Part shown: positions 1 through 5,248 of the stretch, in pieces
How the letters are laid out: every line of letters starts with the position of its first letter
How positions within the stretch are numbered: position 1 is the first letter of the stretch
Assembly (NCBI GenBank): GCA_964426185.1
Contig: CAYRPF010000058.1
Span: forward strand, 1-5,248
Reading direction: 5' to 3'
Origin: an uncultured archaeon
Lineage (GTDB): Archaea > Asgardarchaeota > Lokiarchaeia > Sigyniarchaeales > Promethearchaeaceae
DNA length: 5,248 bases
Notes under the pieces: generated by a model
Seen by the model: the letters and a program-made list of their open reading frames with translations, nothing else
Told to the model about the DNA's origin: nothing
Databases searched by the model: none
Position numbers and translations under genes: made by a program

Positions 1-988
1 TTTCTTGAGCTTCTTCTAAAAGAGAAGTAACATCTTTGTATCTACTGGAAAAATGGGTTAAAAATAGCATGCAAACTTCTGCTTCTTTAGCAATTTCAGC
101 CGCCGTAGCTGCAGTTAAATGTTTTTTTTCTTCCGCTAAATCAGCAAATTCTTTTCCATATGTAGCTTCACATATAAATACATCTGCCTTTTTAGCCAGA
201 TTAATTAGACCTACGCATCTTTTGGAGTCAGCACTGTAGCAAATAATCCTTCCGGGTCGAGGAGGAGATACAATTCCGCTTTCGAGTGGATCAATTTCAA
301 TACCACTATTCAATTTAACTTTTTTACCTTTCTGCATCTGTTTCCAAAGAGATCCTCTAGGAACACCCATTTCGATTGCTCTATTTGGATTGAATTTTCC
401 ATCCAGGGGCATTTCTTCAAACCGAAAACCCATAGTAGGAACTGAATGTTCTACCCAAGCATATTTGACTTGGTACTTTTTTGTTGAAAAAACAATATTA
501 TCAGAGCGATTGTATACAGTTCGCTCATAATTAGGTGTTAAAAATTGCGAGTATTTAATTAATCGTGTATTAACATTAAGAACATCAGAGAAAGAATCAG
601 AATTCTCTCCATTTATAATATATGGAGGAATAACTTCAATCACTGTTAAAGGATATTTTTCTGCCTTCAATCCCACTATTTGATAGTGCATTAAAAGAAA
701 GGACGCAATTCCAAACGGACCTATAATTGTGAGGGGTTTGGTTCGAGAGTTGAGATGAAAATTAAATAATAAGCCTGGAAGTCCGATAATATGATCGCCG
801 TGTAGATGTGATATAAAAATTGTAGTGGGAACATTAAATTTCAAATTTGCTGCTTCAAACCTACGTTGAACATCTTCTCCAGCATCAAAAAGTAAAATAT
901 GTCCTGAATCTAAACGCAAGGCAACTGCAGGTAAATTTCGGGTTTTAGTGGGAGTAGCCCCACTGGTTCCTAAAAAAATAAGATCCAT
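1..988 (-). CDS. rnz: Ribonuclease Z (tRNase Z short form, metallo-beta-lactamase fold); 3' end lies beyond the left window edge
   Basis: Hand translation from ATG at 988 is open for 329 codons to the edge: MDLIFLGTSGATPTKTRNLPAVAL...LLFDAGEDVQRR...IFISHLHGDHIIGLPGLL (HxHxDH metal motif)...LTIIGPFG...EHSVPTMGFRFEE...GKFNPNRAIEMGVPRGSLWKQMQKGKKV (exosite/flexible arm)...RPGRIICYSADS...ADVFICEATY...KHLTAATAAEIA...LFLTHFSSRY. All RNase Z motifs occur in the expected order. It is absent from the ORF track, presumably because no stop codon falls in the window. Confidence 0.96.
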   Translation of the reverse strand, partial: MDLIFLGTSGATPTKTRNLPAVALRLDSGHILLFDAGEDVQRRFEAANLKFNVPTTIFISHLHGDHIIGLPGLLFNFHLNSRTKPLTIIGPFGIASFLLMHYQIVGLKAEKYPLTVIEVIPPYIINGENSDSFSDVLNVNTRLIKYSQFLTPNYERTVYNRSDNIVFSTKKYQVKYAWVEHSVPTMGFRFEEMPLDGKFNPNRAIEMGVPRGSLWKQMQKGKKVKLNSGIEIDPLESGIVSPPRPGRIICYSADSKRCVGLINLAKKADVFICEATYGKEFADLAEEKKHLTAATAAEIAKEAEVCMLFLTHFSSRYKDVTSLLEEAQE

Positions 989-990
989 GA

Positions 991-1203
991 TTACTCGTCT
1001 AGTAGTTGTGATACAAATTTAGAGAAATGTCGCTGTGAGTGATAAGTCATTGGAATTTTTAGAATCTCACATTTTTTAGAATTTGGAACGTTATAAATGA
1101 GGGGATGAACTAAATCTTCTATAGGATATTCGTGTTCATTACGAAAAACAGGTTTTTTCGCTGAGGTGATATACCGAATGAAAGCAGTTTTTTGCAAATT
1201 CAT
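991..1203 (-). CDS. Small hypothetical protein (~70 aa, MNLQKTAFIRYITSAKKPVF...SQLLDE), probably co-transcribed with rnz
   Basis: The stop TAA (993-991) lies 2 nt before the rnz ATG (TAA-TC-ATG), and the ORF fills an otherwise empty gap. ATG at 1203 is preferred over the track's GTG at 1278 because the latter would run through the divergent promoter region. No recognisable domain. Confidence 0.5.
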   Translation of the reverse strand: MNLQKTAFIRYITSAKKPVFRNEHEYPIEDLVHPLIYNVPNSKKCEILKIPMTYHSQRHFSKFVSQLLDE

Positions 1204-1318
1204 GGTTCTAATACTATAAAGCCGTTTAAGCATAAAAGAATTTTTTCTTAATGAAGTAAATTTTTTAACCCAATTCACTCATTTATTACTAGCGATCATT
1301 CCATTTGGTAATAAAAAA
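1204..1318. promoter_or_regulatory. Divergent intergenic region with candidate archaeal BRE/TATA elements for both directions
   Basis: Plus strand: GAAGTAAA-TTTTTTAA at ~1253-1268 and TTTATTA at 1282-1288, upstream of the kinase ATG at 1319. Minus strand: GAAAAAATTCTTTTATGCTTAAA about 22-44 nt upstream of ATG 1203. The AT-rich background makes the exact boxes uncertain. Confidence 0.45.
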
Positions 1319-3286
1319 ATGTCCAGTTCTTCTAAAGAATTCCTTCAGTGCCCTCAGTGCAAGACGATATACTTGTTAGATAATAAAGAGACCCATTCGT
1401 GTGAAAAGTGTCAATATCCTAAGTTAGAAAAGATTTCTGGTCGATTTATTTTACGATGCAAGAAATGTGGTCTAACACAAAATAAAAATAGTTTTATGCA
1501 GCTACATGGAAATACTGCCTTAAGCTGTCAAGCCTCAAACTGTAATGGTGATCTAAAAGCAATTCAAATTGGGATAAATCCAAACGCTCCATCAACAGCA
1601 ACAAATAAATCGGGGGCAATTCCGGGATTTGGGGCAGTAAAACCACCTAAAATGCCCAAAAGGAGAAAATTAGCTGCACAAAGTTCTCATGAAGCTGAAA
1701 AATTGGTGAAAACTTTAGCCGCCCAACCAAAACCAAAAATAAAAAAAAGTTCATTTTTCCCCTTTCCAATAATTGAAGAGAGTACCGATGCAATGGAAAA
1801 TGGAAAATCGGGAATACGACCAAATCAACCTCCAGCAGATCTATTTTTACAAAATCTTCAACCTTTTCCCACTTCTACCCCAGCAAAAGAAGAAAAATAT
1901 AAACAAAAAGATCACGCTGGAATTAGAGTTGGGGATGTATTGATGCTAAATGATATTCCATATCAAGTTATTTTAAAAATAGGGACAGGAGGTATGGGCG
2001 CAGTTCATAAAGTCAAAAACTTGAAAACTGGAGAATTTTCTGCATTAAAAGAATTTTATTATACACGTTTTCACGATCCTGAATCAGGAAAAAATTTCTG
2101 TGAGAAATACTGGGAGCGCGAATCCCATATCACAGCAATTCAAAGTGAATCTCCCGAACGTAGCATGAAATTTATTGGAAAACTCCACTTAACACAATTT
2201 CATAACCCTGAATACTACATTTTTCTGGAATATATTGAGGGAACACCACTAGATAAGTGGTATTTGGAAAAATTTCCCGATTTATCACATCTAACCTTAC
2301 CAGTACTTCAAGATTTGATAAAAAATATTTTAATGCCTATCACCCGACATATGTATTTTTGTCATCAAAAGGGTATTGTTCATCGAGATCTTACTGTTCA
2401 AAATATCATGATTGTATCTCCAGATGAAAATACGTATTATCCAATTATAATTGATTGGGGGGTTGCAAAGGAAATTGGATTAGAGAAAATATATAATCCT
2501 CGAAAACCTTACTATGTTTCAGCTACGCCAGAAGCCACGGGAATCCGTAACCGAGGCACACCTCCTGAAGTAATGGCCGGTTTTGAGCCTATTGCCACCA
2601 CAGATGTGTATATGTTAGGACATATCATGTTCTATTTATTTAGTGGAGGTAATTATGCGGGGGCAGCTGCTACAAATGAAGATTTTGTATTACATCCGGG
2701 TGATTTTAATCCGAAACTGCCAGAAGAATTTAATAAATTGGTCGAATACATGACTCAATATGAACCTGCAGATCGAATGGCAGATATGGTTAAAGTTTAT
2801 GATGCACTACAATGGATCTATGAAGCTGCAGATAAAATAATTCAAAAAAGCAAATTACCTCAATCCTGGGCAAAATATTATTTGTATTGTGATTATAATC
2901 AAGGATTTTTGGAAATTCCCCCTCGTCAAATCGTCAATATCGGAAGAGACGAGATATTACATGTGGGTCGAACTCATGAGATGGATGGCCATATTTATAA
3001 TGCACTCTTACCGACCGACGATGGAAAATTTTCCTTTCAATTATATATCGATAATGATATAGCCTATATTCGAGACATTTACTCTCCTATGGGAACATTT
3101 CTTTCCAAATTAACAATGCCAAATCAACAAGTCTATAACAATGTGGCAATAAAAAATTTAGATAACGTGGCAATCCAATTATCATCCGCAAATCTAGGTA
3201 ATATGCTTATTGAAGTCCCATTTGTTGCTCCAGATGGCAAAACATATCGAATACCGTTCAAAATATATAAACAGGAAGTAGAATAA
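1319..3286 (+). CDS. Hanks-type (eukaryote-like) protein kinase with N-terminal zinc ribbons and a C-terminal FHA-like domain
   Basis: Cys pairs C11xxC14, C28xxC31, C47xxC50 and C70xxxxC75; Pro/Lys-rich linker ~aa85-195. Kinase motifs: GTGGMGAV (aa222-229), ALK244, alphaC E268, HRDLTVQN (355-362), DWG (379-381), PPE417, DVYMLG (429-434), R486. C-terminal VNIGR (539-543) and YIRDIYSPMGTFL (583-595) resemble the FHA GR and D-x-x-S-x-NGT motifs. Confidence 0.95.
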   Translation: MSSSSKEFLQCPQCKTIYLLDNKETHSCEKCQYPKLEKISGRFILRCKKCGLTQNKNSFMQLHGNTALSCQASNCNGDLKAIQIGINPNAPSTATNKSGAIPGFGAVKPPKMPKRRKLAAQSSHEAEKLVKTLAAQPKPKIKKSSFFPFPIIEESTDAMENGKSGIRPNQPPADLFLQNLQPFPTSTPAKEEKYKQKDHAGIRVGDVLMLNDIPYQVILKIGTGGMGAVHKVKNLKTGEFSALKEFYYTRFHDPESGKNFCEKYWERESHITAIQSESPERSMKFIGKLHLTQFHNPEYYIFLEYIEGTPLDKWYLEKFPDLSHLTLPVLQDLIKNILMPITRHMYFCHQKGIVHRDLTVQNIMIVSPDENTYYPIIIDWGVAKEIGLEKIYNPRKPYYVSATPEATGIRNRGTPPEVMAGFEPIATTDVYMLGHIMFYLFSGGNYAGAAATNEDFVLHPGDFNPKLPEEFNKLVEYMTQYEPADRMADMVKVYDALQWIYEAADKIIQKSKLPQSWAKYYLYCDYNQGFLEIPPRQIVNIGRDEILHVGRTHEMDGHIYNALLPTDDGKFSFQLYIDNDIAYIRDIYSPMGTFLSKLTMPNQQVYNNVAIKNLDNVAIQLSSANLGNMLIEVPFVAPDGKTYRIPFKIYKQEVE

Positions 3287-3289
3287 GAA

Positions 3290-4420
3290 ATGGTAACTAA
3301 TTCTGACCAAAATATTAATCCTTTGCGCGATCTACTTTACGAAATTGGCAACTTAAACCCGCCTCAATATGTTTGGCAGTGGTTTTTTCGTTATTTTGCA
3401 GGAGGAACCAATAACTTCAAAGATGAGCCAGTTGATCTATTAGAAAATTATGAGAATCTATTTCTTATGGCCATGAAAACCTTAGAGTACAGATATTCAA
3501 CCCAACAATATGCGAAAATTATTCGAGATTTGATGACACCTGATTATACATACTATTTTGTGGGTGACACTCATGGGAGCTTCGATGACACCTATTTGAT
3601 AATTGATTACTTCATAAAGGTTTTTCAAGTAAATCCTAAGGTAAAAATAGTATGGATTGGAGATATGGTTGATAGAAATCCATATGATCTGCAAAATTTG
3701 GCATTTATTCTATCTTTTTGGATACTTTTTCCAGATAATGTATTCATCCTTCGTGGAAATCATGAAGATTCATCAGTGTGTTCAAGATACGGCTTTTCTC
3801 AACACTTATATGAAAAGGCTCAATCTCGCGAAAAATTTGAATCTATATGGAAATTGATTACCAATTTCTTCAGCAAGTTGCCTTTAGGTTTAATATTTCA
3901 GAGTGGGAATAAAAAAGGCTTGGTATTCCATGGAGGGATCCCTTTTGATGTGGCAAATTATCACCCAGTTAATTTAGATGAAATAGAGCAATATTTGAAT
4001 TGTTATCAACTTGAACATTTTGATATGGATGTGTATTCTCAAACAATATTATGGGCAGATCCTGATCCCCAATTATCTGAACCTGTTGCTCCTACGCCAA
4101 GAACTGGACGACCTCGGTTTAGCCAACAAGCTTTCTCTGAATTTATGAGTGTTAATAAATTTGATTTGATGATTCGTGGTCATCAAAAATTTAAAAGTGG
4201 ATATCAACTTTTTTGGAATAACCAATTAATTTCACTTTTCAGCACTTCTACCTATGACGGAAGAAAGATAGGATATGCACGTTTTCTGCGCCTATTTCCA
4301 AATTCACCTATTTCTGAAATTGGACCTGAAGAAGAAGGAAAACAAGGAATCCTATGGGTGAATGGTGAATTTTTAGAACAACAGCTAGCCAAATATTACA
4401 ATGCCAGCACTAAATCATAA
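3290..4420 (+). CDS. PPP-family Ser/Thr protein phosphatase (calcineurin-like metallophosphoesterase, PP1/PP2A-like)
   Basis: GDTHG (92-96), GDMVDRN (124-130), RGNHE (155-159), YGF, HGG (214-216), LWADP (254-258), IRGHQ (295-299) and GYQLF...LISLFSTSTY (304-322). The start is 3 nt after the kinase stop, with AGGAAG upstream. Confidence 0.94.
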   Translation: MVTNSDQNINPLRDLLYEIGNLNPPQYVWQWFFRYFAGGTNNFKDEPVDLLENYENLFLMAMKTLEYRYSTQQYAKIIRDLMTPDYTYYFVGDTHGSFDDTYLIIDYFIKVFQVNPKVKIVWIGDMVDRNPYDLQNLAFILSFWILFPDNVFILRGNHEDSSVCSRYGFSQHLYEKAQSREKFESIWKLITNFFSKLPLGLIFQSGNKKGLVFHGGIPFDVANYHPVNLDEIEQYLNCYQLEHFDMDVYSQTILWADPDPQLSEPVAPTPRTGRPRFSQQAFSEFMSVNKFDLMIRGHQKFKSGYQLFWNNQLISLFSTSTYDGRKIGYARFLRLFPNSPISEIGPEEEGKQGILWVNGEFLEQQLAKYYNASTKS

Positions 4421-4431
4421 GATCCTAAGGA

Positions 4432-4493
4432 TATAAAAAAAAAATTTATAGCCATTCTTCTGATATTATATTGAAAATAATAATAACCGGTGA
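4432..4493 (+). promoter_or_regulatory. Candidate BRE/TATA promoter and Shine-Dalgarno for the BI-1 gene
   Basis: A10 tract (4435-4444) immediately followed by TTTATA (4445-4450). GGTGA at 4489-4493 lies 5 nt before ATG 4499. Confidence 0.5.
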
Positions 4494-4498
4494 ATAAA

Positions 4499-5209
4499 AT
4501 GAAATACTTTGGAGAAAGAGATGTTAATGAAGAACCATTGGGTGAAGATTTCTATAATAAAACAATGCCGACCATTTTTTTTGGAATGGCAATTTGGGCG
4601 TTTTCTGCTCTATTTTTCTCGGGCTTTATCACGGGAAAGCCGATTGTGCCGTCTTTAGGCATTATAATCACCCTAACTATCTTGTATTTTGTAATTTGGA
4701 TTGCTACCATGATTTTAGCCGGCAAGCGTCAAAATGAAATTGCGCGCGTTCTCTTTTTCAGCGCTTCCTTTATTACAGGAATATTAAATTCATTTATTTT
4801 GTTGTCTGGCGCATTAGAGGTTGGCTTGGGGTTAGCTCGAGATTTATTTACTGTAGCATCTATCATCGGTGTTTTTGCGGTTGGTTCCGCGTTAGCTATA
4901 GGATATATGTTCAGGCGAAATTTCAGTTTAAAGTATATTTACTCATTTATGATTTTTGGTGTTATTATTATTTCTATGGAATGGATTTTGTCAATTTTTC
5001 TCAATCAATCATCCGGATGGGTGATATTTATTAGTATTCTCAGCTTAATCTGGATACTTGGAATAACATTATACGATGGAGCAACCTTATCAGCAAAAAT
5101 TGGTGCTGGATATTGGATGATGGCAGTTATCGACGTATTTTTAGATTTGGTTGTTGTAATCATCCGAATTTTTATTATATTGGTTAGAATTTTTGCAGAA
5201 TCGAAATAA
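4499..5209 (+). CDS. Bax inhibitor-1/YccA (TMBIM) family 7-TM membrane protein
   Basis: Seven hydrophobic segments. TM3 ASFITGIL, TM6 ending in TLYD, and TM7 MAVIDVFLDLVVVIIRI match the family LYD...LYLD di-aspartate pattern, with basic KR at the end of TM2. ATG 4499 is preferred to the track's GTG 4490 because the GTG is part of the GGTGA SD. Confidence 0.85.
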   Translation: MKYFGERDVNEEPLGEDFYNKTMPTIFFGMAIWAFSALFFSGFITGKPIVPSLGIIITLTILYFVIWIATMILAGKRQNEIARVLFFSASFITGILNSFILLSGALEVGLGLARDLFTVASIIGVFAVGSALAIGYMFRRNFSLKYIYSFMIFGVIIISMEWILSIFLNQSSGWVIFISILSLIWILGITLYDGATLSAKIGAGYWMMAVIDVFLDLVVVIIRIFIILVRIFAESK

Positions 5210-5210
5210 T

Positions 5211-5230
5211 CTCAACTTTTTTAATTATAT
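5211..5230 (+). terminator. Possible archaeal oligo-T terminator
   Basis: T6 run at 5217-5222, 7 nt after the BI-1 stop, with no hairpin. Weak evidence in an AT-rich context. Confidence 0.3.
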
Positions 5231-5248
5231 CTTATTCTCATAATTTTA

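Follow-up and report, generated by a model that had tools for sequence, protein, structure and literature searches.

A zinc-ribbon/Hanks kinase/FHA-fold protein and an adjacent PPP phosphatase as a probable signaling unit in a Lokiarchaeial archaeon

Do a protein kinase gene and a protein phosphatase gene lying three nucleotides (nt) apart in an Asgard archaeon encode the two arms of one signaling circuit, or are they no more than neighbors? The question is raised by a 5,248-nt stretch of DNA (the window) from an uncultured archaeon of the Promethearchaeaceae (Lokiarchaeia; GenBank assembly GCA_964426185.1, contig CAYRPF010000058.1, positions 1 to 5,248, forward strand), in which a gene for a protein with zinc ribbons, a Hanks-type kinase domain, and an FHA-fold domain is followed by one for a Ser/Thr phosphatase of the PPP class (Table 1). 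A first-pass annotation, made from the letters alone, had taken the pair for a self-contained writer-reader-eraser switch, possibly a toxin-antidote module. The two genes are probably one co-transcribed antagonistic signaling unit of this archaeon, and the pair belongs to a lineage-specific expansion of Ser/Thr signaling genes rather than being a lone self-contained circuit.

The two open reading frames (ORFs) are where the first-pass annotation had placed them, on the same strand and 3 nt apart, as checked against both the ORF listing and the letters. Both are longer by far than chance would allow in DNA of 35% GC, full-length orthologues exist for each, and there is no break in composition along the window (GC ~31–39%). 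The kinase stop codon (TAA, 3284–3286) and the phosphatase ATG at 3290 leave a spacer too short for an internal promoter. In 12 related loci the gap from kinase stop to PPP start is −4 to 35 nt, and at another locus the sole in-frame ATG of the PPP gives a 53-nt overlap with the kinase gene. This spacing agrees with the operon-like unit proposed earlier, and the genes are presumably co-transcribed; a TATA-like tttatta sequence upstream is a candidate promoter for a near-leaderless kinase-phosphatase transcript.

The full-length kinase protein was modeled with AlphaFold2 (AF2) from a 22-sequence alignment (mean predicted local distance difference test score, pLDDT, 75.6). The model shows four regions: short beta hairpins (residues 1–85, pLDDT 67–88), a disordered stretch (86–192), the kinase domain, and a confident beta-rich domain (517–655). 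The hairpins hold two Cys4 zinc ribbons, with four CxxC-type pairs (C11/C14, C28/C31, C47/C50, C70/C75); the last pair is invariant among the 22 orthologues aligned, and the third (C47/C50) at least 90% conserved. Zinc-ribbon profile matches here, from Pfam and NCBIfam, are weak and sub-threshold. The linker that follows (pLDDT <50 over residues 86–131 and 133–192) is otherwise variable, with two short conserved motifs, PxRRxL (113–118) and FxPFP (146–150), P148 and P150 of the latter being at least 90% conserved. A scan in 19-residue windows found no membrane helix in the protein (maximum Kyte-Doolittle score 1.04), which should therefore be soluble.

The Pfam Pkinase model (PF00069) matches residues 215–488 (E = 1.7e-20; 74 bits, cut-off 31.7) and spans both lobes (profile positions 1–253 of 263). 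The closest solved relatives are generic, among them CDK2, HRI, and PknA/PknB at ~1e-8. G222, G224, G225, K244, D357, N362, D379, and E417 are invariant in 22 full-length orthologues, and the kinase is predicted to be catalytically competent. Full-length orthologues, at 50–77% identity, were found only in Lokiarchaeia/Promethearchaeota: 75–77% in Candidatus (Ca.) Harpocratesius, 53% in Ca. Lokiarchaeum ossiferum, and 52% in Promethearchaeum syntrophicum MK-D1. The source genome is in the same GTDB genus as Ca. Harpocratesius repetitus (Lokiarchaeia; 4.36-Mb assembly).

At the C terminus, the predicted structure establishes an FHA fold. Residues 517–655 folded alone with 16 orthologous sequences give a pLDDT of 92.5 (AF2), and nearly all Foldseek matches to this model in the PDB are FHA domains, the top one being the FHA domain of ArnA from Sulfolobus acidocaldarius (E = 7.9e-4). 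VIA-align returned 106 PDB chains with Z ≥ 8, the top 39 table rows all being FHA domains; the best is aprataxin (Z 11.3, root-mean-square deviation 2.1, 97/102 residues aligned), and the most sequence-similar structural match is again ArnA (Z 10.6, 21% identity). Rad53 1–466 is also among the structural matches. A profile of the family's FHA-fold domain matches a canonical triple-FHA protein (E = 4.9e-5, in a library of 1.84 billion representatives) and, weakly, ArnA (E = 0.24); whole-domain matches to this divergent form are confined to the kinase family itself. G542-R543 and D586/S589/G592 are invariant, and the GR loop is separated from the core strand that follows by a conserved family-specific helical insert (THEMDGH, 552–558), with H553, D556, G557, H558, and A562 its highly conserved residues. 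In a distant relative, P0039, the kinase domain precedes an FHA domain that Pfam does detect, one that shares the IGR(E/D)xI-plus-insert layout and contains a canonical SxNGT motif; this suggests, from sequence comparison, that the kinase with its divergent FHA domain descends from an ordinary kinase-FHA fusion. The C terminus of a paralogous kinase from the same genome (contig C46, discussed below) was tried as a further FHA-fold relative and rejected, the profile comparison being non-significant (E = 0.14).

The second protein is, by its sequence, a complete eukaryote-like PPP enzyme and is predicted to be active. It matches Pfam Metallophos (E = 6.3e-22), and among solved structures it is closest to PP1 catalytic subunits (E ~1e-24 to 2e-26, 237 residues aligned), with PP5 and PP2A next; all of the 60 PDB matches listed, of 92, are PPP catalytic subunits or fusion constructs containing one (PP1, PP5, PP2A, rdgC, PPT). 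The metal-binding and catalytic residues (D93, H95, D125, R129, N157, H158, H214, and H298) do not vary among the 24 orthologues and paralogues aligned. The motif set has two departures: in GDMVDRN the final glycine of GDxVDRG is replaced by asparagine, and FSTSTY occupies the SAPNY position. At 376 amino acids (aa), the orthologue here is longer than the single sister-family PPP (~300 aa), being extended at both the N and the C terminus in a family-specific way. The eukaryote-like PPP class has already been documented in Asgard archaea (Kerk et al. 2021, PMC8249667).

Much of what the first-pass annotation had said of the two proteins has thus held up: the three-module architecture (by the cysteine pairs, the Pkinase match, and, at the level of fold, the FHA domain); the choice of K244 and of H158, in GNHE, as catalytic residues; a soluble kinase; a partner of the PPP rather than the PP2C class; and an Asgard source, given the distribution of kinase orthologues and the genus shared with Harpocratesius.

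The annotation had also made conserved adjacency in related genomes the test of its proposal, and the pair passes it. PPP is directly 3′ of the kinase gene in 13 of 16 related loci, i.e., in all 10 from reference genomes and in three of six more divergent metagenomic ones; in one further locus (L019) a gene for an Arf/Rag-like small GTPase (6857–8020) is inserted between the two. Of the 14 genomes of the GTDB family, 10, from four genera, have both orthologues side by side, and no genome has just one of the two; in the remaining four (three genera, 76–91% complete) neither was detected. The family genomes are mutually related, and these counts do not represent independent events. At two loci (L018 and L021) a GH38 mannosidase gene replaces RNase Z and orf95 upstream, and the pair is kept.

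How might such a unit work? The kinase would autophosphorylate, or be phosphorylated, on Thr or Ser residues of its long activation segment (379–417) or linker, and would phosphorylate substrates in addition. The FHA-fold domain may then make a phosphorylation-dependent or oligomerizing contact, as in ArnA or Rad53/Chk2, and might read phosphothreonine; by analogy with the same proteins, the zinc ribbons and FHA fold together could provide targeting or phospho-dependent assembly. The co-expressed PP1-like phosphatase would oppose the kinase within one pathway, resetting the state by acting either on the kinase itself or on the kinase's substrates.

Several observations weigh against this reading, at the kinase, at the FHA fold, and at the linkage between the two genes. 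In the kinase, the catalytic-loop lysine (HRDxKxxN) is replaced by threonine, in HRDLTVQN (2381–2404), for which reason activity is predicted as likely but not certain. Bud32 and Rio kinases typically have Thr or Ser here. The other unusual position is DFG, which reads DWG (2453–2461). The combination of HRD(L/F/I)(T/S)xxN and DWG is common to all kinase paralogues of the lineage examined, and hints at a distinct archaeal Hanks-kinase clade.

At the FHA fold, Pfam gives no FHA match at E ≤ 0.1 and NCBIfam none, and a six-frame search of the genome with PF00498 misses the domain. Where SxxH would be expected, the alignment has a variable GKFS stretch, and throughout the family Leu or Met stands in for the Asn of NG; the predicted phosphothreonine pocket is only partly canonical. 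It is quite possible, then, though not what we would expect, that kinase and phosphatase are coupled as writer and eraser only, with the FHA fold serving as a phosphorylation-independent interaction or dimerization module, and for the reader step this is a serious alternative. It would suit the missing motif residues and Pfam match, and also the conserved helical insert, which stands in place of the usual beta4 region; but R543, the phosphate-binding Arg of GR, is invariant, as is Ser589; the closest relatives in structure and in sequence, ArnA included, bind phosphothreonine; and P0039 retains the canonical motif in the same layout. Of the reader role assigned in the first-pass annotation, then, the fold stands, and the SxxH motif and Asn of NG that should accompany it are not kept.

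As to linkage, all pair-bearing genomes belong to four genera of one family: the kinase was found in none of 69 sister-family genomes, nor in the rest of a phylum sample of ~300 genomes. The surrounding block (RNase Z, orf95, and a giant zinc-ribbon protein) is syntenic as well, and since the taxonomic range is so narrow and the block so conserved, part of the adjacency may be inherited gene order. The two most divergent family members (L016 and L017) have no PPP downstream, their neighbors being instead a convergent Roc GTPase gene and a GyrI-like gene; and the source genome has eight PPP-like genes, so the partnership need not be exclusive. Taken to its end, this would mean synteny without functional coupling, with kinase and PPP in separate pathways. 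The narrow range, the co-syntenic but unrelated RNase Z and orf95, the numerous PPP paralogues, and the two loci without a PPP neighbor would all fit, and such an outcome is possible; we consider it unlikely, and less likely than coupling. The gaps are overlapping or at most 35 nt although the orthologues are just 50–77% identical, the pair survives both rearrangement of its flank and one gene insertion, presence and absence match strictly over the 14 family genomes, and there is an independent second kinase-PPP cluster. A separate observation at L016 is that the convergent gene (1828–5004) encodes a 1058-aa Roc/Ras protein. The small-GTPase genes beside the kinase may tie this kinase family to Asgard small-GTPase signaling.

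The second cluster, on contig C46 of the source genome, consists of a kinase, a PP2C, and two PPP genes in that order, preceded by zinc-ribbon-like ORFs and, at a short distance, by a canonical FHA match (C46:12001–12138); the related genomes that have the window's pair have this kinase-PP2C-PPP-PPP arrangement as well. A kinase paralogue on another contig (C59) has no phosphatase neighbor. In all, the source genome has four Hanks-type kinase genes and four canonical FHA matches beside its eight PPPs, and “self-contained” and “dedicated,” as the pair was first described, have to be given up. PPP paralogues number 3–11 per genome in the four genera with the kinase, as against a single PPP (~300 aa) in 22 of 22 sister-family genomes sampled, and it is from this difference that the pair is placed within a lineage-specific Ser/Thr signaling expansion. 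In five sister-family genomes checked, the Pkinase model gives just two short matches each: one is Rio2 (annotated at a single locus), the other an open frame of ~225–240 aa that may be Bud32- or Rio-like. The single PPP is ~2 kb from a Pkinase-like match in all five. This was considered as an older kinase-PPP linkage and rejected, the neighboring Rio2 being convergent and three genes off (GGACT, LSm, methyltransferase) at the one annotated locus.

A more ambitious extension can be imagined, in which the Harpocratesius/Promethearchaeum/Lokiarchaeum clade built a eukaryote-style Ser/Thr network de novo, with the kinase-FHA/PPP operon as its founding element and the PPP catalytic subunit recruited to its kinase through PxRRxL, FxPFP, or the FHA fold. 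The counts behind it are an increase in Hanks kinases from none detected to 2–5 per genome, and in PPPs from 1 to 3–11. We regard it as speculative and rather improbable; if true, recruitment of PPP by the linker or FHA fold would make a prokaryotic forerunner of the docking-motif targeting of eukaryotic PPP subunits.

Two further readings are very improbable. The kinase-toxin/phosphatase-antidote or antiviral module that the first-pass annotation had also entertained finds a foothold in PADLOC, where the kinase domain scores against defense-kinase models (mad6 at 3e-25, MkoA, PD-T4-6, PglW), but these matches cover only the generic kinase domain (~215–500) with scores like those of Pfam Pkinase, NCBIfam scores are far under cut-off (52 bits vs. 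460), the phosphatase has no PADLOC match, and the locus, present in one copy, keeps its housekeeping context beside RNase Z across genera, with no mobile-element or defense genes nearby. That the second gene encodes some other metallophosphoesterase, such as an ApaH-like diadenosine tetraphosphatase, is hardly credible either: weak NCBIfam ApaH matches (E = 6.5e-5) and database names such as “ApaH/PP2A family” point that way, but at 22 bits against a cut-off of 176, with every listed PDB match a PPP, PP1 the best (E ~1e-24 to 1e-26), and the PPP-specific motifs beyond the core (HGG, LWxDP, RGH, and FSTSTY at the SAPNY position) present.

Upstream of the pair, and divergent from it, is the RNase Z gene (NCBIfam TIGR02651, E = 2e-83), with the small orf95 between. 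This ORF is kept in most related loci with conservation only from about residue 28 on, and translation probably starts at the ATG at 1203, for a product of ~70 aa; no family was assigned to it by Pfam, PADLOC, or the protein atlas. Downstream, the gene for a multi-pass membrane protein is preceded by a TATA-like box of its own (tttata, ~4446–4451). Of the related loci, just two keep this protein, L001 of Harpocratesius and the metagenomic L019, whose homologue matches Bax inhibitor-1 (PF01027) weakly; the kinase-PPP unit thus does not regularly include it. Further on, contig C58 (5610–14069, minus strand) has genes convergent with the pair for a giant protein of 1272 aa that bears a terminal zinc ribbon, for a GH38 alpha-mannosidase, and for a 511-aa PPP extended at its N terminus by ~235 residues. 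The giant protein stays near the kinase-PPP pair in related genomes, the mannosidase and 511-aa PPP in some related loci only. Conserved proximity makes the giant protein, and a zinc-ribbon PPP downstream, candidate substrates.

Table 1. Features of the kinase-phosphatase locus and of the second cluster in the same genome. Positions are those of the window unless a contig is named; motif numbers are residues of the encoded protein.
Feature	Position	Strand	Details and basis
Small ORF orf95	991–1278	−	2 nt upstream of RNase Z, divergent from kinase
Candidate TATA-like box tttatta	1282..1288	+	31–37 nt 5′ of kinase ATG; read from letters
Zinc-ribbon/Hanks kinase/FHA-fold gene	1319..3286	+	655 aa; ORF listing, full-length orthologues
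N-terminal double zinc ribbon, residues 1–85	1319..1573	+	Cys conservation, AF2 model
Disordered Pro/Lys/Ala/Ser-rich linker, residues 86–192	1574..1894	+	pLDDT, composition
Hanks-type kinase domain, residues ~205–512	1931..2854	+	Pfam Pkinase, PDB matches, invariant residues
Kinase motifs			G-loop 222–227, K244 (ALKE), HRDLTVQN 355–362, DWG 379–381, PPE 415–417
Divergent FHA-fold domain, residues 517–655	2867..3283	+	AF2, Foldseek, VIA-align, profile link
Spacer gaa, 3 nt, kinase stop to phosphatase ATG	3287..3289	+	Letters read directly
PPP Ser/Thr phosphatase gene	3290..4420	+	376 aa; ORF listing, profile and PDB matches
Phosphatase motifs			GDTHG 92, GDMVDRN 124, GNHE 156, HGG 214, LWADP 254, RGH 296, FSTSTY 317
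Multi-pass membrane protein gene, 3′ of phosphatase	4490–5209	+	239 aa
Second cluster: kinase, PP2C, PPP, PPP	Contig C46, 3434–8037 (L011)	−	459, 277, 371, and 401 aa

The locus is a lineage-specific variant of a familiar kinase/phosphatase signaling operon and not a new kind of system: its three components all come from families that are well known, and co-transcription of a kinase with a phosphatase is a textbook principle, so that the finding refines this picture and does not overturn it. To our knowledge, nothing is known of how Asgard PPPs are used, and the locus supplies a genetically linked kinase partner for one of them. Eukaryotic PPP phosphatases are thought to be of Asgard descent (PMC8249667). 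The locus also marks a burst of lineage-specific Ser/Thr signaling that is absent from the sister family, and this bears on the timing of eukaryote-like phospho-signaling complexity within the Asgard archaea. Because the two Lokiarchaeia in culture, P. syntrophicum MK-D1 and L. ossiferum, both have orthologues, the pairing is open to direct testing with recombinant proteins, and possibly in culture.

Among known systems, Rad53/Chk2 combines FHA and a Ser/Thr kinase in one polypeptide and is reversed by Ser/Thr phosphatases; the order of kinase then FHA found here is that of the kinase-FHA2 part of Rad53. Rad53/Chk2 has no zinc ribbons, however, the eukaryotic genes are unlinked, and the kinase domain here has no specific sequence affinity, its best PDB matches being CDK2, HRI, and PknA/PknB.

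In bacteria, operons of Hanks kinases pair them with PP2C phosphatases, as the first-pass annotation had said, and with FHA readers (review, PMC6213207). Examples are pknB-pstP with fhaA/fhaB in Mycobacterium tuberculosis, PpkA-PppA-Fha1 in Pseudomonas aeruginosa, prkC-prpC in Bacillus subtilis, and DRA0331-0334 in Deinococcus radiodurans (PMC6213207; bioRxiv 10.64898/2026.01.23.701218). The likeness is in a kinase gene beside a phosphatase gene and in an FHA module, with co-transcription in the present case predicted; the difference is that the bacterial enzymes are PP2C/PPM phosphatases and mostly membrane-receptor kinases, whereas here the phosphatase is a PPP and the kinase soluble.

Asgard PPPs have been described as the closest prokaryotic relatives of the eukaryotic ones, and archaeal enzymes as “EukaryoticPPP-like” and as PP1-arch (PMC8249667, PMC5007285). 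The phosphatase of the window resembles these as a monomeric catalytic subunit with the full motif set, and differs in its family-specific terminal extensions. The text of PMC8249667 has the word “kinase” once, “neighbor” once, and “operon” not at all. A paper on ESCRT reports kinase and phosphatase genes in euryarchaeal ESCRT loci, with the class of phosphatase unnamed. In the literature searched, we found no description of an Asgard Hanks kinase-PPP or kinase-FHA operon, or of this kinase family.

The archaellum regulatory network of S. acidocaldarius is likewise archaeal and likewise brings together Hanks kinases (ArnC and ArnD), FHA, and a phosphatase of the PPP class (PP2A); its other members are ArnA, with a zinc finger and FHA, and ArnB, with a vWA domain (PMC5007285, PMC7472852). 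The combination of a zinc-binding module with FHA is shared with ArnA in particular. The window has no vWA (ArnB-like) partner, and its FHA pocket is non-canonical. In Sulfolobus the kinases, the zinc finger-FHA protein, and PP2A are separate components, not reported as an operon (PMC5007285), whereas here a single polypeptide combines zinc ribbon, kinase, and FHA fold, with the PPP gene 3 nt further on.

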